Positions 32,877 through 64,000 of a DNA stretch of 64,000 nucleotides are shown here, piece after piece. The position numbers and the translations under genes were made by a program. The stretch lies in NCBI GenBank assembly GCA_018296565.1, contig GCA_018296565.1_3935.1; one strand, given 5' to 3'. The stretch comes from a phage. The notes beneath the pieces are model-generated. The model did not search any database, was not told where the DNA came from, and saw only the letters and a program-made list of their open reading frames with translations. Positions within the stretch are counted from its first letter, which is position 1, and every line of letters begins with the position of its first letter.

Positions 32877-33900
<1,024 letters not shown>

Positions 33901-33909
33901 AACAACTTT

Positions 33910-41288: not shown

Positions 41289-41489
41289 ATGAAGATGAGA
41301 GTAAAAGACAATTTTAAAGTTATTGACCACCGTTTAGTGGAACTCTCATCTCTTTCCAATGAGGTAATGATTGAACGTCTTAAGAGAGTTGAATCACGAA
41401 GGAAAGAGATTGCAGATGAAATTCATGAACTGGACAAGATTGAAAATGGATTGAAGGCAGAACTACAACGAAGAGGTGCTAATGTCTAA
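41289..41489 (+). CDS. Hypothetical coiled-coil protein
   Basis: 66 aa helical ORF; 3' end overlaps primase-helicase start. Confidence 0.4.
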   Translation: MKMRVKDNFKVIDHRLVELSSLSNEVMIERLKRVESRRKEIADEIHELDKIENGLKAELQRRGANV

Positions 41490-43467
41490 AGGTCGTAAAT
41501 TGAAAGAGGCTGGTCAGTTTGTTGGTCATTGCGCATGTCCACGTTGTGGTTCATCAGATGCTGGTTCAATCTATCATCATGACGATGGTTCTTATTCAAT
41601 GACTTGCTTTAGTTGTAACAAAGGTTTCCCAGAGTGGGATTTTGATAAAGGACAAATCGTGAGCACTTATTCTACTGGTTCAGACAATAAAAACCGTACT
41701 TTCCGTGGAATGGATTTAGACGATGTGAAAGAAAACCTTGAAGCAATGGACTTGAAAGACAGGAAGATTCCTGCAAAAGTTCTTGAGCGTTTGGGTATCA
41801 AGGTTGACATTGACAGTGATGGTGAAATTGACGCGCATTTCTACCCAACTTACAAACGCAATGAAGATGGCAAGCTAGAGCATGTTGGATACCGTGTTCG
41901 TCACCGTTACCCAGAAGACCATCCAAAAGAGCACCTACGAGGTAAGTTAAAAGACTTTTCTGGTGGTGTTGGAGACATTAAAGGTGAACTGGCAATGTTT
42001 GGTTCATGGATTGCTCCAGAAGGTGGGAATCGTCTGTTCATCTGGGAAGGTGAGATGGAATGTGCCACAGCAATCTATATGACTTCTTTGGCGATTAAAG
42101 ATAAGTCTCGTCGTAAGAATTACTGTCACGTATCTGTCCCATCAGGTGCAAACATTAAGTCTATCAAAGACAACTATCAGTACATCACATCATTTGATGA
42201 GATTTACTTGTGCTTTGATAACGATGAAGCAGGTGCTAAAGCTACCAAAGAGGCTGCTGGTATCTTACCTATTGAGAAGGTTCGCTTATTCCAGTATCCA
42301 GAAGGTGTAAAAGACCTTAACGAATGGTGGACAAAGTTTTATAAAGAGAAAGATACAGTTCTGGAAGGATTTAAACAGCGTATCTATAACGCACCTCGTT
42401 ACTGCCCTGCTGGTATCAAGAACTTTGCAGATGGTTTTGAGGCAATGAAGAATCGTGGTCAGATTCCATTGATACCTTTCCCAGAATCTTTCGGGGACTT
42501 GAACAGGCTAACTTACGGTGGTTACGGTTTAGGTGAGATTACAACTATTGCAGCACCATCTTCAGTAGGTAAGTCAGCTTACACTCGTGAGATGATTTAT
42601 TCAGCTTGGAAAGAAACTGATTATAATATCGGTGTAATTCCTGTAGAAGATACCTATGAAGAGTTGATGGAGATGCTCTGTGCAATCCACCTAAGCAAAC
42701 AGATTTCTGAGATTCCTTATGATGAACGAGATTGGGATGAACTAAAAGGGGCGCACGCCGAGCTTTCAAAAGGTCGCCGCATTCATATCGTTGACCATCA
42801 AGGGGCAATTGACCAAGATAACCTGCTGGAGTTTGTTGACTATCTTGTTAATAGTTTAGACTGTAAGATTATTATTCTTGACCCTATTACGTTGGCTCTG
42901 TCACGTTCTGATACGGATGAAGAGGAAGTGTTATCTGAACTACTGCGTCGTTGCAAACGCTACCAGTATGCACAGGTGAACGTCTGTCACGTTCGTAAGA
43001 GTGCAGGCGGTCAGAAAGCTAACTCTGAAGGCGGAGACATCTCTGAAGAGGATATTAAGGGTTCTGGTGCGTATTTCCAGATTTCCATGAACAACATTCT
43101 ACTAATGCGTAACAAGGTTGACCCAGACCCTGTTAAGAAAAACTTGACAAAAATCAAGTTAACTAAGTGTCGTCGTCATGGTAAGTCAACAGGTATTGCT
43201 GGCCATACTTGGTACAATCCAGACACAGGACGTCTTATCAAAGCTTCTGGATGTGGTGTTGACATTGATGGTGCAGCAGAAAATATTCGTCAACAGTTTG
43301 GTATTGGTGAAGCTGAAGACCATTATGACGACTCTTTACCTCATTATGAAGATGAAGTGTTTGACCGTGAGACTGGTGAAGTCTATACTGAAGAACAGCG
43401 TCAAAGCTCAACGATTCCACCTGTATTAAGTGAGGATGCAGATGACTGCCCGTTTGAAACTGAGTGA
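41482..43467 (+). CDS. DNA primase-helicase (T7 gp4-like)
   Basis: Track ORF starts at a GTG at 41476; ATG at 41482 follows an aagaggtg RBS. N-terminal zinc ribbon CACPRCGSSD...CFSCNKGF, C-terminal helicase Walker A AAPSSVGKSAYT. Confidence 0.85.
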   Translation: MSKGRKLKEAGQFVGHCACPRCGSSDAGSIYHHDDGSYSMTCFSCNKGFPEWDFDKGQIVSTYSTGSDNKNRTFRGMDLDDVKENLEAMDLKDRKIPAKVLERLGIKVDIDSDGEIDAHFYPTYKRNEDGKLEHVGYRVRHRYPEDHPKEHLRGKLKDFSGGVGDIKGELAMFGSWIAPEGGNRLFIWEGEMECATAIYMTSLAIKDKSRRKNYCHVSVPSGANIKSIKDNYQYITSFDEIYLCFDNDEAGAKATKEAAGILPIEKVRLFQYPEGVKDLNEWWTKFYKEKDTVLEGFKQRIYNAPRYCPAGIKNFADGFEAMKNRGQIPLIPFPESFGDLNRLTYGGYGLGEITTIAAPSSVGKSAYTREMIYSAWKETDYNIGVIPVEDTYEELMEMLCAIHLSKQISEIPYDERDWDELKGAHAELSKGRRIHIVDHQGAIDQDNLLEFVDYLVNSLDCKIIILDPITLALSRSDTDEEEVLSELLRRCKRYQYAQVNVCHVRKSAGGQKANSEGGDISEEDIKGSGAYFQISMNNILLMRNKVDPDPVKKNLTKIKLTKCRRHGKSTGIAGHTWYNPDTGRLIKASGCGVDIDGAAENIRQQFGIGEAEDHYDDSLPHYEDEVFDRETGEVYTEEQRQSSTIPPVLSEDADDCPFETE

Positions 43468-43537
43468 TAGTTATAAAAGAGAGGGGTTCATACCATTCTT
43501 TGAAGAAAAAAGTTTAAATGAATTTCAGGAAGAGTGT

Positions 43538-43566
43538 TTGACAAAGGTTGATAGGTTCTATAGAAT
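43538..43566 (+). promoter_or_regulatory. sigma70-like promoter TTGACA-N17-TAGAAT
   Basis: gtgTTTGACAaaggttgataggttctaTAGAATgc, just downstream of the primase-helicase stop. Confidence 0.45.
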
Positions 43567-43718
43567 GCTCTACATGAAATGTGATGGAGGCGTTGAGGTA
43601 GAAGAAAAGTTCCATCACAGCATAATCACAGTCACCATTACTATACCTAAACATAATATTGGTTGGCTCTTTATAATTAAAGAAAATGTGTTTGAATATC
43701 AAGTATATCGGAGAATAT

Positions 43719-43869
43719 CATGAAACACTCTAAAGCATTTGAACAAGTTTTTGGGGATTCCTTAAAAGCCACTGCTGGTAAACCAGCAAAATACTATGAA
43801 GAGAAGCGTGTAAGAACTGGAAAAACTGCACGTAAAGCAGCTTCTAAAGATAAGCACAACTTCCAGTAA
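43719..43869 (+). CDS. Small basic protein (unannotated ORF, 49 aa)
   Basis: ATG preceded by ggag RBS; lysine-rich; below the 60 aa track cutoff; flanked by two promoters. Confidence 0.35.
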
Positions 43870-43876
43870 TTAATGT

Positions 43877-43905
43877 TTGACAATAGAGTATCAACAAATT
43901 AGAAT
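43877..43905 (+). promoter_or_regulatory. sigma70-like promoter TTGACA-N17-TAGAAT upstream of SSB gene
   Basis: aatgTTTGACAatagagtatcaacaaatTAGAATtgg, about 35 bp upstream of the 43942 ATG. Confidence 0.5.
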
Positions 43906-43941
43906 TGGTACTCTTCATAAATTGAGATAGAGGTTTAAATA

Positions 43942-44799
43942 ATGTCTAAAGTTGTTAAAATGAAAGCTCCGGTAGAGAAGTACAATGGTACTGAACGTCA
44001 AACTCTGCGTTACCTTCTGAAAGATGTCTGGTTTTATTACCTGAACACTTCACCACGTCCGGGAAAAGGTAAATCTATTGATAAGAAATTCCCAGGAAAA
44101 GACTGTAACTACAGTGTTTCAATTCTGGCAGAAGATGGTAACAAGCTGTTTAAAGAGTTTACTAAGTCTAAGAAAAACCCAGAAGGTTGGGATAAAGTTA
44201 CTACTGAAGCAGTTGATGCAGATGACTTCGAAGAGAAGTTTGGTTGCAAACCACCATTTGAAGCAGACACTTACTACATCTTGAAAGTAAGTCGTGCAGC
44301 AGCTTATAAAGATGGTGCTGTGTGGACAGCTAAACAGTCATTCCCTGTAATGCTGATTGAAGAAGTAAATGGTAAGCGTGTAGCTGTTAAACAGCCGATG
44401 AAGAAAATCAAAGCTCAAGCATCTGACAAACATGAAGATGACAAGAACTATGATGTAATTCATCCAGATATTGCAGTTGGTAACGGTTCTTTTGGTAGTG
44501 TGATTCTTTCTACTCACTTCTACACTTTTGAGAACAATGTTCTGACAAAACCTATTCAGGAACAGTTTATCATTGATACCCTTGTACCTTACACTGGTGG
44601 TAACGGTGCTAACGGCGAACCTGAACTGGATGAAGATGAACTGGCTATGCTTGGTCTTGATGGTGTTGAAGATAATGGTGAAATCACTGAAGAAGACGCA
44701 ACAGACCACAAACCTTCGAATAATTCTGATGATGGTGACGATGAAGACTTGCCAGACCCAGATGACGAAGAAGATGAAGACTTCGATACAGAAGACTAA
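43942..44799 (+). CDS. Single-stranded DNA-binding protein (T7 gp2.5-like, putative)
   Basis: 285 aa with extremely acidic C-terminal tail (DDGDDEDLPDPDDEEDEDFDTED), characteristic of gp2.5-type SSBs; in replication block. Confidence 0.55.
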   Translation: MSKVVKMKAPVEKYNGTERQTLRYLLKDVWFYYLNTSPRPGKGKSIDKKFPGKDCNYSVSILAEDGNKLFKEFTKSKKNPEGWDKVTTEAVDADDFEEKFGCKPPFEADTYYILKVSRAAAYKDGAVWTAKQSFPVMLIEEVNGKRVAVKQPMKKIKAQASDKHEDDKNYDVIHPDIAVGNGSFGSVILSTHFYTFENNVLTKPIQEQFIIDTLVPYTGGNGANGEPELDEDELAMLGLDGVEDNGEITEEDATDHKPSNNSDDGDDEDLPDPDDEEDEDFDTED

Positions 44800-44816: not shown

Positions 44817-44845
44817 AAAGCCCTGTACTTAGTATGGGGCTTTTT
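44817..44845 (+). terminator. Rho-independent terminator after SSB gene
   Basis: Hairpin aaagccc-loop-gggcttt followed by TTTTT. Confidence 0.55.
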
Positions 44846-44861
44846 CATATGGAGAGTCACA

Positions 44862-45902
44862 ATGGAGAAGTACACATTAAAAAAACTTCCCGATTCAGTT
44901 ACACATGTCTTTATTGACTCTGACAGTATTGCCTATAAAGGTGCTTGTGTAGTTGAGAAAGCAAAATATAAATATGTCAATAAACTCACAGCAGAAGAAT
45001 CTGAACCATTTGATAATGCAAAAGATGCTGCAAGATGGTTAGCAGACCAGAGAATCCTTGTGGAAGAACTTGGCCTGACATTTGATGAAGATGAATGGGA
45101 AAGACAGACTTGGAAAGAAGCTAAGAGTGAAAAAGAAGCTATCATGGCTACTCAGCAGGTTCTTCAGGAATGGCTTAAGGTTGTTGGTAAAGAAAGAACT
45201 TGGGTAGGTTATTTAACAGAGAAGGGTGTACATAAACATAAAGACATTAAAGGTCTTGAGCACCAATATCAAGGTAACCGTAAAGAGGCTGTCACACCAA
45301 CACACTTAGTTGCTTGTCGTGAATATCTTCTATCAAGACCAGAGTTCAAGCTCTTAAAGGGAGGCTTCGAAGCCGATTCCATCGTAATTGCTAAAGCTGA
45401 AAAGATGGGTAAGAAGGCTGCTCTTATGAGTATTGACAAAGACCTTCGACAAGCTGAAGGGACTTATTGTATTGATATGACTTATGAAAAGTCACCACTA
45501 ATTTTTATTGCTGATAATAATGTTGGTGATATCTGGGATTGTCCTATCAAATCAAAACCAAAAGCTGCAAAAACTGTTGGTGTAGGTTTTAAATTTTTGT
45601 GTTATCAGGCTGTTGCTGGAGATAATGCAGACAACTACTTCGGCCTTAAAGGTGCTGGCAAAGTAGCTGTGATGAATGCTTTAGATGGTAAAGAGACCTA
45701 TAAAGAGTGTCTTGACGCTATCTATGAACTCTATGCTAAAAAAGAGTCTTACACCTATGTGTCATGGGATGGACAGACTGTCACAAAGACACCATTAGAA
45801 CTAATGGAACAGCATTTCTGGATAGCATATCAAGAGAGAAATCCAAAAGATAATTTCTCTTTTAAGAAATATAATTGGGAGCCGTGTATGAATGAAGATT
45901 AA
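44862..45902 (+). CDS. 5'-3' exonuclease / flap endonuclease
   Basis: 346 aa; N-terminal acidic cluster VFIDSDS and SIDKDL motif typical of FEN/5'-nuclease PIN-domain proteins. Confidence 0.6.
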   Translation: MEKYTLKKLPDSVTHVFIDSDSIAYKGACVVEKAKYKYVNKLTAEESEPFDNAKDAARWLADQRILVEELGLTFDEDEWERQTWKEAKSEKEAIMATQQVLQEWLKVVGKERTWVGYLTEKGVHKHKDIKGLEHQYQGNRKEAVTPTHLVACREYLLSRPEFKLLKGGFEADSIVIAKAEKMGKKAALMSIDKDLRQAEGTYCIDMTYEKSPLIFIADNNVGDIWDCPIKSKPKAAKTVGVGFKFLCYQAVAGDNADNYFGLKGAGKVAVMNALDGKETYKECLDAIYELYAKKESYTYVSWDGQTVTKTPLELMEQHFWIAYQERNPKDNFSFKKYNWEPCMNED

Positions 45903-46389
45903 AGGATTTGGCAATTGTCCCACCTATGGTCATTGGGTATCTTTATGTGGGGAAGTTGACCCCACTAAACATTTTGGTTTTGTCTATTTAGTACACTGTA
46001 AGAAAACCGGACAATACTATATTGGAAAGAAACAGCTTAATAGTGTGACCAAAAGAAAAGTTGCGGGTAAGACTCGGAAGAAGGTAGTCACTAAGGAAAG
46101 TGATTGGATGACTTATGAGACTTCTTCTGAGTATATTAAAAAAGATATTGAGAGTTTTGGAAAAGAGTTTTTTGACTTTTACATTATTCAAACCTACTAC
46201 ACAAAAGGTGGTCTAGTTTATGGTGAAGCAAACCTTCAACATAAATTCGATGTAATGACAAAAAGGATTGACTCTAAGCTCAGACTCTTCTACAATGCCA
46301 ATATTGCAGCAATTAAGTTCATTACTAAAGAAACTTATGAAGATGCTGAAAAAAGAATCCATAAGGTAATGAAAGCAAACTGTGCTTGA
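45892..46389 (+). CDS. GIY-YIG nuclease (homing endonuclease-like)
   Basis: 165 aa; GIY-YIG module FVYLVHCKKTGQYYIGKKQ; start overlaps 3' end of the exonuclease gene. Confidence 0.6.
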   Translation: MKIKGFGNCPTYGHWVSLCGEVDPTKHFGFVYLVHCKKTGQYYIGKKQLNSVTKRKVAGKTRKKVVTKESDWMTYETSSEYIKKDIESFGKEFFDFYIIQTYYTKGGLVYGEANLQHKFDVMTKRIDSKLRLFYNANIAAIKFITKETYEDAEKRIHKVMKANCA

Positions 46390-58574: not shown

Positions 58575-60356
58575 ATGACTAAATCACTTTATGCAGTACC
58601 AGCAGGTTTAAATGCAGATGCTTACAAATCTGGTCATGTTTACCAGTATCCTAGCGCAACAGAGTACTTGATGTTCAACCTGACACCACGTAGTGATAAA
58701 TGGTTTAACAGCCCTTTAGCAATTGACGGTGTAGTGGCTTTTGGTATTCAACGTTTTGTTAAAGATTACTTGATAGACCACTGGAATGCCACTTTCTTTG
58801 AACGTGATAAAAAAGAAGCAATTGACGAAATCTTAGAAGTCATGCATGGTGTTCTTGGTAAAGATGCTATCGGTCGAGAGCATTGGGAAGCACTTCACGA
58901 CTTAGGTTATCTACCAGTTGAAGTCTACGCTGTAGAAGAAGGCACAGTTGTCCCTATGCGTGTCCCAATGATTGTTTTCCAGAACACTGTTTCAGGTTTC
59001 CATTGGGTAGCAGGTTATCTGGAAGATGCTTTCTCTGCTGAGATTTGGAAGGCTTGTACCATTGCAACTATTGCATTGCACTACAAACGTATCTGTAAGA
59101 GGTGGGCTGACCTTACTTGTGATAACGACTTGCATTTGCCTTATCAGTGCCATGACTTTGCTATGCGTGGTATGTCCGGCTTTACTGATGACGCATTTAA
59201 TGCTGTAGGCCACTTGACCAGCTTTAAAGGAACTGATAGCTTCCCTGCCGTATATACAGCTAAACGCATCTACGGACAGTCTTACCCAGTCTCTGATATT
59301 GGTAGCTCTGTACCAGCCACTGAGCACTCTGTAATGTGTGCAAACATTGCTTGGGAAGGTGGTAACGAATTGATTGAAGAAGAAAGACGCTTTAAAGGTG
59401 AATTACAAACCTTCCGTCGTTTCTTAACAGAAACTTACCCAACGGGTATTGCAAGTATTGTTTCAGATACTTATAACTTCTGGAGAACTGTATCAGTGAT
59501 ACTGCCAGAACTCCGTAAAGAGATTATGGAACGTGACGGCAAGCTGGTAATTCGTCCTGACTCTGGAGACCCTGTGCATATTGTCACAGGTTATAAAGCA
59601 ATCCACTTAGAATGTGCTAAGAAGGCTTATTATGAACATCTTAGCAAGCTGGAAGCTAGTGATACAATGCTGAAATCTGTTCTGAACATGAAGCTTGAAA
59701 ACATCAACTATGGTATTGCTGGATGGCTACTGTCAGAAGGCTACGAAATGGTTGTTGACCGAGAAGACTTTGAAGTTGCTGATACAGTACTGCTGAAGAA
59801 TGCTTATATGGTTGGTTCTGCAAACGTTGTAACACGTCCTGTAGCAGAGATTGATGGAGCTATTAAGACCCTGTATAACATCTTCGGAGGGACTATCAAC
59901 TCCAAAGGTTTTAAAGTACTGGATGAGCACATCGGACTTATTTATGGTGACTCTATCACGTTGGAACGTGCAAACGAAATATTGAAGCGTTTGTATGAAA
60001 TGGGTTTTGCAAGCTCTAACGTAGTGTTTGGTGTAGGCTCTTACACTTACCAGTACATGACTCGTGACACCTTTGCATTTGCTGTCAAAGCAACTCTTGC
60101 AAGCATTGGTGGTAAGGAGATTATGCTTGCAAAAGACCCTAAAACAGATAGTGGTGTGAAGAAGTCTGCCTTTGGTGGTGTAGCGCCTATGTGGGATGGT
60201 GATAAATTGAAAGCTGTAGATGGCTATGGATTCCAGAGCTTTGCAGATGCACTTGAACATCCAGCTTGTGCTTTACGTTTAGTCTTTAGCGACTCTGAGC
60301 AGTTTGGCTACACAACTCTTGGCGATATTCGAAATAATATTGACAAGCAGCTTTAA
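58575..60356 (+). CDS. nadV: Nicotinamide phosphoribosyltransferase (Nampt/NadV)
   Basis: 593 aa; matches remembered Nampt blocks: DAYKSGH, HDFAMRGMS...KGTDS, SIVSDTYNFW, IRPDSGDP. Confidence 0.8.
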   Translation: MTKSLYAVPAGLNADAYKSGHVYQYPSATEYLMFNLTPRSDKWFNSPLAIDGVVAFGIQRFVKDYLIDHWNATFFERDKKEAIDEILEVMHGVLGKDAIGREHWEALHDLGYLPVEVYAVEEGTVVPMRVPMIVFQNTVSGFHWVAGYLEDAFSAEIWKACTIATIALHYKRICKRWADLTCDNDLHLPYQCHDFAMRGMSGFTDDAFNAVGHLTSFKGTDSFPAVYTAKRIYGQSYPVSDIGSSVPATEHSVMCANIAWEGGNELIEEERRFKGELQTFRRFLTETYPTGIASIVSDTYNFWRTVSVILPELRKEIMERDGKLVIRPDSGDPVHIVTGYKAIHLECAKKAYYEHLSKLEASDTMLKSVLNMKLENINYGIAGWLLSEGYEMVVDREDFEVADTVLLKNAYMVGSANVVTRPVAEIDGAIKTLYNIFGGTINSKGFKVLDEHIGLIYGDSITLERANEILKRLYEMGFASSNVVFGVGSYTYQYMTRDTFAFAVKATLASIGGKEIMLAKDPKTDSGVKKSAFGGVAPMWDGDKLKAVDGYGFQSFADALEHPACALRLVFSDSEQFGYTTLGDIRNNIDKQL

Positions 60357-60370
60357 AAGTATATGATAAG

Positions 60371-60392
60371 AGGCTCCTACGGGAGCCTTTTT
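60371..60392 (+). terminator. Rho-independent terminator after nampt
   Basis: Hairpin aggctcc-tacg-ggagcct followed by TTTT. Confidence 0.6.
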
Positions 60393-60409
60393 AATTTCTG
60401 GAGAAGACT

Positions 60410-60931: not shown

Positions 60932-63298
60932 ATGCGCATGGTAAATGACCACGCAGAAGTGATTAAGAGTTCAACTTCTTTAGAGACGTCTCAAGCACAG
61001 ATTACAATGACACCTGAGATGTTCAGCCTTTTGAGTTCTGGTGTATACACCTTTAAAGAAAGGGCAGTGATTCGTGAACTGTCATGTAACGCAGTGGATG
61101 CTCAGAAAGAAGCTGGAAAAGAGAACATCCCATTCCATGTGCATTTACCTACTCGTTTTGAGCCTTACTTCGAAGTTCGTGATTTTGGAACTGGATTGAC
61201 TCATGATAAAGTTATGAGTCTGTACCTAAACTATGGAGCTTCTACGAAGAACGACTCTAATGACTACATTGGTGCAATGGGTATCGGCTCAAAGTCACCA
61301 TTTGCAATTGCTCAGTCATTCACAGTATCTAGTTATGTTGACGGTGTTGTTAATAAGTACTCTGTTTATCTTGAGAATGGTATCCCTCAAGTAACTAAGC
61401 TGACAACTAACCCAACAAAAGAACCTAATGGTTTAGCTGTACGTGTGGCAGTTGCTGACCACCGTATCTCAAAGTTCTTTGAAGAAGCTGGGAATGTGTA
61501 CTCATACTTCACTGTAAAACCAGAAAGTAATATTGAGTACAACGATGTATTAGCAGATATGAACGTCATTGCCCGTGAAGAAGGTGTTTATGATGCCATG
61601 ATTCATAAGCACAGCTGGCGTTCTAGTGATAACAGGACAGAGTTTAATGTGGTGATGGGTAACATTGCCTACCCTGTTAATATGGAAGCATTACTTGGCG
61701 ATGATTTCTTCAAAGTATTGCCAGAGTTTTTCCGTAGGAGCGTAGACCTTGTAAACATCTACATGCCTATTGGTTCAGTTGCTATTGCAGCTTCTCGTGA
61801 AGCATTGCAGATGAATGACACGACAAAAAATGTTATCATTGAGGCTACTAAAAAGATAACTGAAGCCATTACAAAGGATGTTATCAAAAAGATTAACAAT
61901 CAGCCCACACTCATGGATGCTGCACAGGCTTATGCTGAGTTGCGTTTGAACTCACGAGAAATGTTTAATGCTGTGTGTCCAAAGCTAGAGTGGGGAGGCG
62001 TTAAGCTTGATTCTCTGGAAGAAGAGTTGCTAAACATTCGTCGCGGGATTATCTACGCAGAAGACGGCTCAGTCATTTATGAGCGTGACGGTAAAGGTAA
62101 TATTAAGGTTGATAGGAACGGAAACAACATCCCTAAAGTAGATTACCTTTATGACCCAGTTGCTTATGTCAAGTTCAACTCTTTAGAGAGTAAGATTCGT
62201 GCAACAGCACTTTCCTACACTCAAGAGGCAAGTATGTTCAATATCTTTGGTGCAATGCGTAAAAGCCAAATTGAACAGTTTTTGTTCGTGATTAATGACC
62301 GTCGCAATAAAAATGGCACTGAGAAGACTGTAGGACGAAATCAAATCTTGCGTGGTGCATGTCGAGACTACGCTAACGAGTCAGGCCTGTTCCACAGATA
62401 CAATGGTATTGTGTTTGTATTCTCGACTGAAAAAGAGTTAGATGATTTAATCAATCTACACAAACTTGATAAAAGCTTGTTAAAGATTGTGAAAATGTCT
62501 GATAAGGAGCATCATTATCAGCGTAAAGAGGCTGTGAGAGGTGTTGTAAAACTATGGAAAGCTGTTCCAGCAGAATCTGTAGCTTCATACAAAGAGGTGT
62601 CAGAAGACTTAGACACAATTGAAGAACCTCAGCTTTATATTAAGGCAGTTGGTGACACAGTTGATGGTAGATGTTTTTGCTCATCTCCAGAAGATGTAGC
62701 TAAGTCAGTTGCTAATGTTATTGGAAAGACAGTTTATGTTTTCCGAAAAGCAAATTGGAAAAAGATACCAGAAGACTGGATTGAAGTAGATGAGAAGCTC
62801 TTGAACGACAGCTTAACTGATGTTCATTGGATTAATCATAACAGGTATATGACACGCATCTACATGAATGGTGTTCTTGACCTTACAAGTAGCTGGATTA
62901 TTGCCAGAAACTTTACATTCAATAACAGGAAGATTTCTCGTGGCTATTGCTATTCACGAGACACAAACAAAACTATCTTCTTAGAAGGCAATGAAGACGC
63001 TGTTGAGGCAATGTTTGGTAAAATCCAATACGTTGCTGCACCGTTTGCATACACTTACACTATTAGTAGATTGCAAACTTTGAAAGACTGCCTTGACAAC
63101 GATACAAAGCTGTACAAGAAAATTAAGAAAGCTGGTGACCGTATGGTCATTAAGGTGACAAACTACCTTTCAAAAAGAAAACAAGAAAACTTCTTGCTTT
63201 CTCATTTAGATTGGAATAAAGTGTCACCCATCGAAGTGAGTAAGTTCTTAGGCTTTGATGTGAAGTGTGTTCCAGAAGGGACTACAATTTACGATTAA
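60932..63298 (+). CDS. rIIA: rIIA-like protein
   Basis: 788 aa; N-terminal region matches remembered T4 rIIA blocks (RAVIRELSCNAVDA, VRDFGTGL, NDYIGAMGIGSKSPF), a GHKL ATPase-like fold. Confidence 0.75.
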   Translation: MRMVNDHAEVIKSSTSLETSQAQITMTPEMFSLLSSGVYTFKERAVIRELSCNAVDAQKEAGKENIPFHVHLPTRFEPYFEVRDFGTGLTHDKVMSLYLNYGASTKNDSNDYIGAMGIGSKSPFAIAQSFTVSSYVDGVVNKYSVYLENGIPQVTKLTTNPTKEPNGLAVRVAVADHRISKFFEEAGNVYSYFTVKPESNIEYNDVLADMNVIAREEGVYDAMIHKHSWRSSDNRTEFNVVMGNIAYPVNMEALLGDDFFKVLPEFFRRSVDLVNIYMPIGSVAIAASREALQMNDTTKNVIIEATKKITEAITKDVIKKINNQPTLMDAAQAYAELRLNSREMFNAVCPKLEWGGVKLDSLEEELLNIRRGIIYAEDGSVIYERDGKGNIKVDRNGNNIPKVDYLYDPVAYVKFNSLESKIRATALSYTQEASMFNIFGAMRKSQIEQFLFVINDRRNKNGTEKTVGRNQILRGACRDYANESGLFHRYNGIVFVFSTEKELDDLINLHKLDKSLLKIVKMSDKEHHYQRKEAVRGVVKLWKAVPAESVASYKEVSEDLDTIEEPQLYIKAVGDTVDGRCFCSSPEDVAKSVANVIGKTVYVFRKANWKKIPEDWIEVDEKLLNDSLTDVHWINHNRYMTRIYMNGVLDLTSSWIIARNFTFNNRKISRGYCYSRDTNKTIFLEGNEDAVEAMFGKIQYVAAPFAYTYTISRLQTLKDCLDNDTKLYKKIKKAGDRMVIKVTNYLSKRKQENFLLSHLDWNKVSPIEVSKFLGFDVKCVPEGTTIYD

Positions 63299-63304
63299 AG
63301 TGTT

Positions 63305-63334
63305 TGACAAGGGGCTTTTAAGCCCCTTAGAATA
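63305..63334 (+). promoter_or_regulatory. sigma70-like promoter TTGACA-N18-TAGAAT with palindromic spacer, between rIIA and rIIB
   Basis: gtgtTTGACAaggggcttttaagcccctTAGAATagcc; the spacer is an inverted repeat aggggc/gcccct. Confidence 0.45.
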
Positions 63335-63377
63335 GCCTTACAAAATGATTTATTAACTAACAAGAGAGAGTAATAAG

Positions 63378-64000
63378 ATGACTACTAAAACTAAAGCACA
63401 GATTGACGCAGAAATTTACGAACTGGTTAAAGAAGGTAAGCTGACTAAAACAGCTATTGCACAGAAGTTCAATACTTCAACCCGTTCAGTTGGTCGTGCT
63501 GTAGAGCGTCATGAAGCAACCTTAAAAGGTAAGAAGAAGGTGACTTCTACACCAGCTAAGAAGACCTTAAAGCAAGTTGCTAAGTCAGTTAAAAAGAAAG
63601 CTGGCAAACCAGTTGAAAAGGTTGTTAAAGAGGCTGTACAGAAAGCTCCAGTAAATAAACTGCATGAAGCTATGCAGAAAGATGACAAGATTGAGTACAT
63701 GATTACTGGTGATTCTGTAATTATGACTTATGGTTCAGAATCTGAAATTGTTGAGTCTACTCATCCGAACTATCAAGAGATTGTAGTTCATGTTGTGAAA
63801 GGTGAGTCCAAGAAAGCATTTGAACTGATGAACATTCGTAAGTCTATCGAAAACTTCACTCAGGGTGCTATCACAATCAAAGGCGACAAGCTATTCTACG
63901 GTGCTGTTGAGATGCGTTCTACTCTGGTTGACCGTATTCTTCACATGATGAAAACTGGCGATAAAGGTTTTGAACGACTTGTAATGTTCTTCGAAAAACT
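63378..64000 (+). CDS. rIIB: rIIB-like protein (3' end outside window)
   Basis: Open to the window edge; region NYQEIVVHVV...KGDKLFYGAVEMRSTLVDRILHMMKTGD parallels remembered T4 rIIB (LFYQNIELRSGLVDRILDSMEKGE); directly downstream of rIIA. Confidence 0.7.
   Translation, partial: MTTKTKAQIDAEIYELVKEGKLTKTAIAQKFNTSTRSVGRAVERHEATLKGKKKVTSTPAKKTLKQVAKSVKKKAGKPVEKVVKEAVQKAPVNKLHEAMQKDDKIEYMITGDSVIMTYGSESEIVESTHPNYQEIVVHVVKGESKKAFELMNIRKSIENFTQGAITIKGDKLFYGAVEMRSTLVDRILHMMKTGDKGFERLVMFFEK

Follow-up and report, generated by a model that had tools for sequence, protein, structure and literature searches.

We analyzed a 64,000-nucleotide (nt) stretch of phage DNA (NCBI GenBank assembly GCA_018296565.1, contig GCA_018296565.1_3935.1; hereafter, the window) at the junction between its primase/helicase gene and a downstream gene encoding a 285-amino-acid (aa) protein. 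The original prediction for this junction was of two tandem promoters, here P1 and P2, flanking an unannotated lysine-rich open reading frame (ORF) of 49 aa. Our comparative analysis indicates that this ORF, designated ORF49, is a genuine protein-coding gene under strong purifying selection and that P2 is a conserved promoter located before the 285-aa gene; ORF93, the 93-aa frame in which P1 lies, is a real protein gene as well. Judging from gene content and order, the junction as a whole is very probably an ordinary conserved part of the T7-like replication module of a Felix O1-type phage (Ounavirinae). Its features are real but ordinary: both small ORFs are already catalogued as hypothetical proteins in the Felix O1 RefSeq record.

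The 801 bases around the junction matched 244 phage records, nearly all of them Felixounavirus (Felix O1-like, Ounavirinae); the closest match was Shigella phage vB_SflM_004, with 98.9% identity. In the annotated records of relatives, the genes are ordered as primase/helicase, a 93-aa hypothetical protein overlapping the primase end, a 45–49-aa hypothetical protein overlapping the preceding stop codon, a spacer of 72–92 nt, a gene of ~285 aa, and a T7 gp6-like exonuclease. This order is common to Felixounavirus, Mooglevirus, Suspvirus, and Pectobacterium phage Wc4-1. The comparative set consisted of 34 loci taken from public phage records and IMG/VR, and ratios of nonsynonymous to synonymous substitutions (dN/dS) were calculated by the Nei–Gojobori method. 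In loci of Felixounavirus, Mooglevirus, Suspvirus, Wc4-like, and metagenomic origin, ORF49 was found between the homologue of Felix O1 ORF102 and the 285-aa gene. It was absent from some Ounavirinae-type loci: the Erwinia-type loci L036 and L037 lacked both small genes, and the metagenomic locus L039 encoded the ORF93 homologue and no ORF49. The promoter–hairpin module before the 285-aa gene was retained in L036 and L037 (2344–2447 in both) and in L039 (1394–1501). The junction comprises the following features:

41476..43467, + strand: primase/helicase gene (T7 gp4-like; Felix O1 ORF101), with Pfam domains Toprim_2 and DnaB_C and the same annotation in relatives
43361..43389, + strand: third promoter-like site, TTGACC-17-TATACT (10/12), in the primase 3' end; corresponds to "P102" of Felix O1
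43432..43436, + strand: Shine–Dalgarno sequence GAGGA of ORF93, 5 nt upstream of ATG 43442; the Mijalis record annotates a ribosome-binding site (RBS) there
43442..43723, + strand: ORF93 (Felix O1 ORF102 / FelixO1p246, phrog_4982), 93 aa, 11.3 kDa, overlapping the primase end by 26 nt
43538..43566, + strand: P1, sigma-70-type promoter-like site TTGACA-17-TAGAAT, inside ORF93 (codons L-T ... Y-R-M), expected start ~43572–43574
43710..43713, + strand: Shine–Dalgarno sequence GGAG of ORF49, 6 nt upstream of the ATG, conserved in the alignment
43720..43869, + strand: ORF49 (Felix O1 ORF103 / FelixO1p245, phrog_4424), 49 aa, 5.6 kDa
43877..43905, + strand: P2, sigma-70-type TTGACA-17-TAGAAT, in the 72-nt intergenic region, expected start ~43910–43913
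43885..43914, + strand: hairpin (inverted repeat) AGAGTATCAA / TTGGTACTCT enclosing the P2 −10 element; not mentioned in the original prediction
43930..43933, + strand: Shine–Dalgarno sequence GAGG of the 285-aa gene, invariant in the alignment
43942..44799, + strand: 285-aa gene (Felix O1 ORF104, phrog_3877), probably encoding a T7 gp2.5-like single-stranded DNA-binding protein (SSB)
44820..44845, + strand: intrinsic terminator t104 (gccctgtacttagtatggggcttttt), closing the P2 unit; listed as t104 in Table 2 of Whichard 2010

ORF49, a conserved gene for a small basic protein

The predicted 49-aa ORF (43719–43869) was found in place, with its start shifted by one nucleotide to 43720. The GGAG motif and the basic, lysine-rich character of the product were also as described: the protein contains 10 Lys and 3 Arg and has a net charge of +8 and an isoelectric point of 10.1. 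The start codon overlaps the stop codon of ORF93 as ATGA. Regarding its status as "unannotated", this is correct for the ORF list used in the original prediction, whose 60-aa cutoff gave rise to the impression, and incorrect for the Felix O1 RefSeq record and most related GenBank records. ORF49 was known already: it corresponds to Felix O1 ORF103, most relatives carry it under a hypothetical-protein label, and the phrog_4424 profile matched residues 1–49 over its 49 positions (E = 2.7e-35). The exact protein was present on 312 contigs, named "hypothetical/phage protein" by NCBI and UniRef, and proteins of this kind formed ~7 clusters at 90% identity.

ORF49 was judged to be coding because of its low dN/dS, the synonymous excess in its own frame, the codon-position pattern of its variable sites, and its integrity among relatives. 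The dN/dS value was 0.04 within Felixounavirus and 0.16 across genera, a range similar to that of the flanking genes (0.01–0.04 for the primase and 0.02–0.10 for the 285-aa gene). Variable sites were distributed over the three codon positions as 11/8/31. Synonymous changes were in excess in the ORF49 frame both in Felixounavirus (P = 5e-4) and in Mooglevirus/Suspvirus (P = 3e-6), and in neither of the other two frames. The ORF was intact in all 34 of the 34 related loci bearing its conserved start motif. A check of conservation and dN/dS had been suggested for the small ORF together with its prediction, and these values show its reading frame to be conserved. A core of 36 residues, K-x-F-x-x-V-F-G-D-S-L-x-A-T-x-G-K-x-A-x-x-[YF]-x-x-K-R-[VI]-R-x-G-K-T-A, was retained in Wc4-like and metagenomic relatives down to ~55% identity, and the charge of +8 to +10 was retained with it. 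An ORF that is short, without a known domain, and without a phenotype upon knockdown in a relative could be a chance open frame with no product; frame-specific purifying selection, 34 intact copies out of 34, the 36-residue motif, and a conserved ribosome-binding site make this explanation extremely unlikely.

The knockdown data come from phage SUSP1 (Suspvirus), which was screened with CRISPRi-ART, a dCas13d-based translational knockdown (PMC11879866). SUSP1 gene numbers were mapped to the genes of the window via PHROG and Felix O1 tags, with the following results (all PMC11879866):

agp052, homologue of ORF93: fitness −2.83, Not Fit
agp053, homologue of ORF49: fitness −0.06, 4 guides, Not Fit
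agp054, homologue of the 285-aa gene: fitness +2.8, P = 3e-7, Fit
agp055, homologue of the exonuclease gene: fitness +1.87, P = 0.005, Fit

The 285-aa gene is essential in SUSP1: the agp054 knockdown was validated by a plaque assay, in which the titer fell from ~2e10 to ~5e5 (PMC11879866 supplements). Because the primase gene escaped detection in it, this screen yields false negatives (PMC11879866), and a negative result from it is weak evidence. ORF49 is constrained like the adjacent essential replication genes (dN/dS 0.04), yet appeared dispensable when its homologue in a relative was knocked down under laboratory conditions. This combination singles it out as a small protein of conditional importance that is worth testing.

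Tentatively, from its composition and conservation, we propose that ORF49 encodes a 5.6-kDa polyanion-binding accessory protein, conditionally useful and dispensable in the laboratory. It would act by electrostatic binding to a polyanion, the candidates being DNA, RNA, or the acidic C-terminal tails of the primase–helicase (ending in ...DADDCPFETE) and of the 285-aa protein. For nucleic-acid binding, the one supporting observation is the conserved charge of +8 to +10. Several results weigh against this proposal. No match to ORF49 was found in sequence searches of Pfam, NCBIfam, or PDB, and an exhaustive profile search of 1.84 billion cluster representatives identified none outside the clade; this search added two more genuine representatives and three spurious matches to repeat proteins. 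The absence of a phenotype for the SUSP1 homologue (PMC11879866) points in the same direction. A word-indexed search with ORF49 likewise retrieved Ounavirinae-type proteins only.

Two further observations concern the sequences mentioned here. The tails of the 285-aa protein (...DFDTED) and the primase–helicase (...CPFETE) have an F-x-T-E ending in common. A hairpin inside ORF49 (43773–43788) folded well in the window (z = −3.2) and was regarded as incidental because it is absent from Mooglevirus.

ORF93, the candidate promoter P1, and the promoter P2

The ORF reported at 43430–43723 does overlap the primase 3' end (stop codon at 43465–43467) and does contain P1, as had been noted. Its classification as a probable untranslated region is not sustained: it is the gene ORF93, real, fast-evolving, and conserved, with its start at ATG 43442. 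The phrog_4982 profile matched residues 1–93 (E = 3.3e-48), and full-length tblastn matches were found in 255 records, the lowest identities (38–41%) being those in Mooglevirus and Suspvirus. The dN/dS of ORF93 was 0.35–0.55, and its proteins split into ~70 clusters at 90% identity. An AlphaFold2 model built from a shallow alignment had a mean predicted local distance difference test score (pLDDT) of 84.8 and consisted of a long helix on a four-stranded antiparallel sheet. When compared with BFVD, the model retrieved its own family only, including the Silverhawkium homologue and the 97-aa homologue of Wc4 (20% identity, E = 9e-5); because of the latter match, the positional homologues of ORF93 can be said to share the fold. 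The model had no significant match among PDB structures (best E = 0.1), and sequence searches of Pfam, NCBIfam, and PDB also gave no match to ORF93. For both small proteins, PHROGs yielded nothing beyond their own hypothetical-protein families.

A segment of ORF93 at 43577–43651 (codons 46–70) is hypervariable: 39 of 75 sites vary within Felixounavirus, with synonymous diversity (pS) of 0.40 and a nonsynonymous-to-synonymous ratio (pN/pS) of 0.31. Two or three allelic types of the segment can be distinguished, a pattern suggestive of exchange by recombination. Positive selection was considered for this segment and ruled out by the pN/pS of 0.31 at a pS of 0.40. ORF93 was disrupted in 3 of the 34 relatives, by nonsense mutations in L015 and L024 and by a 1-nt deletion in an A-run in L023/EC6; the latter, a homopolymer frameshift, is possibly a sequencing error. 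Because of its fast evolution, the hypervariable segment, and these disruptions, ORF93 looks like a dispensable accessory gene and not a leader.

The alternative, in which 43430–43723 is the untranslated leader of a P1-driven mRNA and the 49-aa protein is the only product encoded before the SSB gene, draws on the location of P1 inside this ORF, on the hypervariable segment just 3' of P1, which varies more within Felixounavirus than any other part of the region, on the disrupted copies, and on the absence of a fitness cost for the ORF93 homologue in SUSP1. This reading is very unlikely, since the frame is open at 86–117 codons in every lineage having it—Mooglevirus, Suspvirus, Wc4-like, and metagenomic—down to 20–40% identity; a synonymous excess was found in the ORF93 frame only (P = 0.004 in each of two clades), while the other frames carry 8–16 stops; and pN/pS is 0.31 even within the hypervariable stretch. 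A strong GAGGA 5 nt upstream of ATG 43442 and the confident fold matching the Wc4 homologue are also at odds with a leader.

P1 and P2 were found exactly at the predicted positions (43538–43566 and 43877–43905), each as TTGACA-17-TAGAAT with 11/12 matches to the sigma-70 consensus and a 17-nt spacer. This exact hexamer pair occurs 2 times in 64 kb on either strand vs. 0.01 expected from dinucleotide shuffles, and the P1 and P2 hexamer matches are non-random. Sites with at least 11/12 matches numbered 7 in the window vs. 2.7 ± 1.7 in shuffles, whereas at 9/12 the local count was at chance level (13 vs. 11.8 expected). Host-type promoters are expected in a Felix O1-type phage: Felix O1 does not encode an RNA polymerase, and promoters of the host type have been predicted in it (PMC3185647; PMC4837284). 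Five promoters, including P102, are listed for Felix O1, and P1 and P2 are not among them (Whichard 2010, PMC3185647). The −35 element equivalent to that of P102 was kept in most lineages, but it lies within conserved coding sequence.

P2 is, by its conservation across lineages, probably the promoter of the 285-aa gene: TTGACA, TTGACT, or TTGCAA, a 17-nt spacer, and TAnnAT were found in 12 of 13 lineages, while the surrounding spacer had diverged. This geometry was retained even where the downstream protein has only 44% identity, including in lineages without the small genes. Because the GAGG, the 285-aa gene, and then terminator t104 lie downstream, P2 appears to head a monocistronic unit and would start a monocistronic mRNA of the 285-aa gene. 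In Felix O1, t104 follows ORF104, and reverse-transcription PCR (RT-PCR) detected maximal expression of ORF104 and ORF101 at 25 min (PMC3185647). Both P1 and P2 would fire from the host RNA polymerase.

P1 is probably a functional internal promoter; the evidence that its conservation exceeds that of the neighboring sequence is suggestive. Its hexamers were invariant in 24 unique Felixounavirus sequences; variation affects 2 of its 29 sites compared with 65 of 249 elsewhere in ORF93 (Fisher P = 0.02); the ten P1 codons carry zero synonymous differences; and TTGxxx-17-TAxAxT was found at the same spacing in six lineages in which the residues encoded at the −10 element are YRM, GKV, CKV, AKV, RRL, and CIV, with conservation extending to third-position choices (T and A) and a rare ATA codon. 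These four observations together suggest constraint at the nucleotide level. As an internal promoter, P1 would add transcripts for ORF49 and, via read-through, for the abundant 285-aa protein; a P1-like site kept in L039 without ORF49 fits the 285-aa gene as a second target of P1.

Several points count against P1. It spans codons 33–42 of ORF93 and lies in the most conserved motif of the protein, so that constraint on the protein confounds the conservation of the promoter. It is absent from Wc4-like phages. Near-consensus sites are enriched in the window, yet two or three per window can be due to chance. As for expression at the junction in general, the RT-PCR study of Felix O1 took in neither ORF102 nor ORF103 (PMC3185647), and a literature search for transcript-end or infected-cell proteome data on Felixounavirus and Ounavirinae found nothing usable. 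P1 may be a look-alike produced by the peptide E-C-L-T-K...F-x-[KR]-[VML] and AT-rich codon usage and not a working promoter, in which case ORF49 would be made only from upstream transcripts, by coupling to ORF93 and from its own ribosome-binding site. We regard this as possible, though not the expected outcome. The −35 element coincides with the Leu-Thr codons of the best-conserved motif (ECLTK), in which the Thr codon varies at its third position (A, T, or G); Wc4-like phages keep ORF49 without P1; and the ATGA overlap with GGAG would suffice for ORF49 expression. A mere look-alike does not readily account for hexamers that are an exact 12/12 copy of those of P2, for the sequence TGTTTGACAA common to P1, P2, and a third module at 63304, for the persistence of T-A-x-A-x-T with a 17-nt spacer across six lineages despite changes in the encoded residues, or for the lack of synonymous differences. 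TGTTTGACAA was found three times only in the window, at these three sites, vs. 0.48 expected. An inverted repeat flanking P1 (43522–43580) was also considered and rejected, as its fold was no better than that of shuffled sequences (z = −0.7).

The P2 hairpin and the 285-aa gene

The RNA of the inverted repeat around the P2 −10 element was predicted to fold with −9.6 kcal/mol (z = −3.1). A hairpin reaching from the −35 element to ~+10 was predicted in 12 of 13 lineages (−9.6 to −16.8 kcal/mol, z from −1.8 to −4.7), with at least seven different stem sequences among them, and it was also present in lineages without ORF49 (Erwinia-type and L039). The sense-strand RNA was the more stable one in 10 of 12 lineages because mismatches in the stem are G.U-compatible on the + strand.

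The likeliest role of the P2 hairpin, as far as these predicted folds indicate, is that of a weak terminator or 3' stabilizer for upstream RNA, intertwined with the promoter that follows. The hairpin would form in transcripts reading through from upstream and would act as a weak terminator or 3'-end stabilizer of the primase–ORF93–ORF49 message. This interpretation is weakened by three results. The stem is followed by UCAUAAAU, with 3 T in 8 nt and no proper U-tract. Covariation in the alignable subset was limited, with 98.6% of cells pairing and one clear exchange of A-U to G-C. RNAalifold found nothing in a promoter-anchored, gap-free alignment of the P2 region, which is explained by the drift of the stem register relative to the P2 hexamers. 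Because of the missing U-tract, the hairpin is not a canonical intrinsic terminator in this window, and a terminator scan of the window did not call it. An Rfam match to the S15 leader at 43884–43995 (P2 hairpin, 5' untranslated region, and start of the 285-aa gene) was sub-threshold (17.7 bits vs. a gathering score of 39.5, E = 0.15) and probably due to chance.

The same repeat could be read as a double-stranded DNA operator of a dimeric phage repressor, possibly the ORF49 protein, in which case the 285-aa gene would be expressed in a timed or auto-regulated manner. The dyad is centered on the P2 −10 element, its two arms differ jointly from genus to genus, a small basic protein is encoded next to it, and Felix O1 ORF104 peaks at 25 min and not at 5 min. 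We nevertheless consider an operator quite unlikely. The repeat persists in the Erwinia-type loci and L039, all without ORF49, and no second copy of the P2 dyad above chance was found in the 64-kb window; both observations speak against an operator for ORF49. From lineage to lineage, the arms differ in spacing and register, a variation that a rigid dimer could not accommodate; the + strand RNA is more stable in 10 of 12 lineages, with G.U-compatible mismatches; and ORF49 matches no DNA-binding family. Three related candidates were rejected: ORF49 as a repressor acting on the P2 dyad (which also occurs in the absence of ORF49, shows register drift, and has asymmetric strands), ORF49 as a ribbon-helix-helix or Cro-like regulator (no Pfam, NCBIfam, or PDB match, and the only nearby dyad persists without ORF49), and a repeated operator formed by the dyad (additional copies in the window did not exceed chance).

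Apart from the weak-terminator or stabilizer role, two linked ideas were considered, which as a pair we regard as unlikely: the P2 hairpin as a promoter-dependent RNA switch and ORF49 as a replisome factor docking on acidic F-x-T-E tails. In read-through RNA, the purine-rich 5' arm (AGAG/GGAG, Shine–Dalgarno-like) may pair with the pyrimidine-rich 3' arm, while in RNA initiated at P2, the 3' arm may be a free 5' end able to pair with the ribosome-binding site of the 285-aa gene. The folds of Mijalis, SUSP2, L034, and the Erwinia-type loci suggest such pairing between the 3' arm and the ribosome-binding site. If the switch were real, the output of the gp2.5-like protein would depend on the promoter that made the mRNA. 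As for docking, ORF49 may bind the tails as a target common to the primase–helicase and the 285-aa protein.

A module resembling that of P2 and two other promoter-like sites with a repeat or hairpin were found elsewhere in the window. After a 788-aa ORF, at 63296–63381, a second module consists of a stop codon, TGTTTGACAA, a hairpin, TAGAAT, an RBS, and an ATG; the part from TGTTTGACAA to TAGAAT lies at 63301–63333, and its hairpin, AGGGGCTT/AAGCCCCT, fills the 18-nt promoter spacer. On the − strand, at 33850–33902, the −10 element of TTGACA-16-TATACT (11/12) overlaps the repeat GGTGAGTA...TACTCACC, the stem of which is nearly the same as that of the Erwinia-type P2 hairpin (GGTGGGTA/TACTCACC). 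At 60340–60395, a promoter-like site, TTGACA-16-TATGAT (11/12), is directly followed by a strong terminator-like hairpin (gaggctcctacgggagcctttttaa).

The 285-aa protein was predicted to be an SSB encoded downstream of P2. The promoter part of this claim is supported by its presence in 12 of 13 lineages; the SSB label is plausible, given a local match to gp2.5 and an acidic tail, and is not established. Profile-to-sequence alignment (hhalign) of the 285-aa protein with T7 gp2.5 gave a local match of 25 columns (score 31.5, P = 7e-4, probability 26%), compared with 14.8 ± 2.8 (maximum 22.7) for 60 shuffles of gp2.5; it aligns residues 177–201 with residues 141–165 of gp2.5 over IGxGSxxxV...Y. 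The tail is acidic and ends in ...DEEDEDFDTED (DPDDEEDEDFDTED), the last 64 residues having a net charge of −30, and F281 is invariant. One UniRef entry names the protein SSB. Sequence searches of Pfam, NCBIfam, and PDB gave no match, and the AlphaFold2 model, made to look for an OB fold, was poor (mean pLDDT 44) and unusable, with nothing below E = 0.2 in a Foldseek comparison with PDB. The 285-aa protein is probably a T7 gp2.5-like SSB, a plausible assignment that is not established. Farther downstream, a 165-aa ORF (45892–46389) overlaps the end of the exonuclease gene; its counterparts in related contigs are flagged as SegE_GIY-YIG (homing endonuclease).

Felix O1-type phages serve for Salmonella typing and biocontrol, and knowing which elements of the junction are dispensable aids their engineering. 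The practical value of the analysis is correct annotation, as a 60-aa cutoff or an untranslated-region call would drop two genuine genes. The analysis also delimits a simple unit for the essential 285-aa protein, with promoter, hairpin, gene, and terminator; listed among genes of "completely hypothetical function" (agp054; PMC11879866), the protein here shows statistically supported local similarity to gp2.5.

Comparison with known systems

Both small genes have direct counterparts in Felix O1. ORF49 is the same gene as ORF103 (YP_001504375), with 98% identity across all 49 residues, a single residue change (Q9 against K9), and the same position between ORF102 and ORF104; its family, phrog_4424, is a hypothetical protein. 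ORF93 is the same gene as ORF102 (YP_001504374), in the same position, overlapping the primase end, coupled to ORF103, and with a full-length profile match; its identity is just 82% because of the hypervariable central segment.

P1 and P2 match canonical Escherichia coli sigma-70 promoters (TTGACA-17-TATAAT) at 11/12 positions with the optimal 17-nt spacer; unlike these, P1 lies within a coding sequence, and the −10 element of P2 is wrapped by a hairpin. The P2 hairpin resembles intrinsic terminators, such as t104 of Felix O1, in being a stable sense-strand stem-loop just past a stop codon, and in some lineages (Erwinia-type, L041) UCUUUU follows it. In contrast to intrinsic terminators, its stem in the window is AT-rich (−9.6 kcal/mol) and interleaved with a promoter.

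The replication module of T7 consists of gp4, the gp2.5 SSB, and gp6, and the window likewise encodes a gp4-like primase–helicase and, downstream, a gp6-like exonuclease. The 285-aa protein has an acidic tail with a near-terminal Phe in common with gp2.5, and its profile gave the local match described above. T7 differs in its gene order and has no homologue of ORF93 or ORF49.

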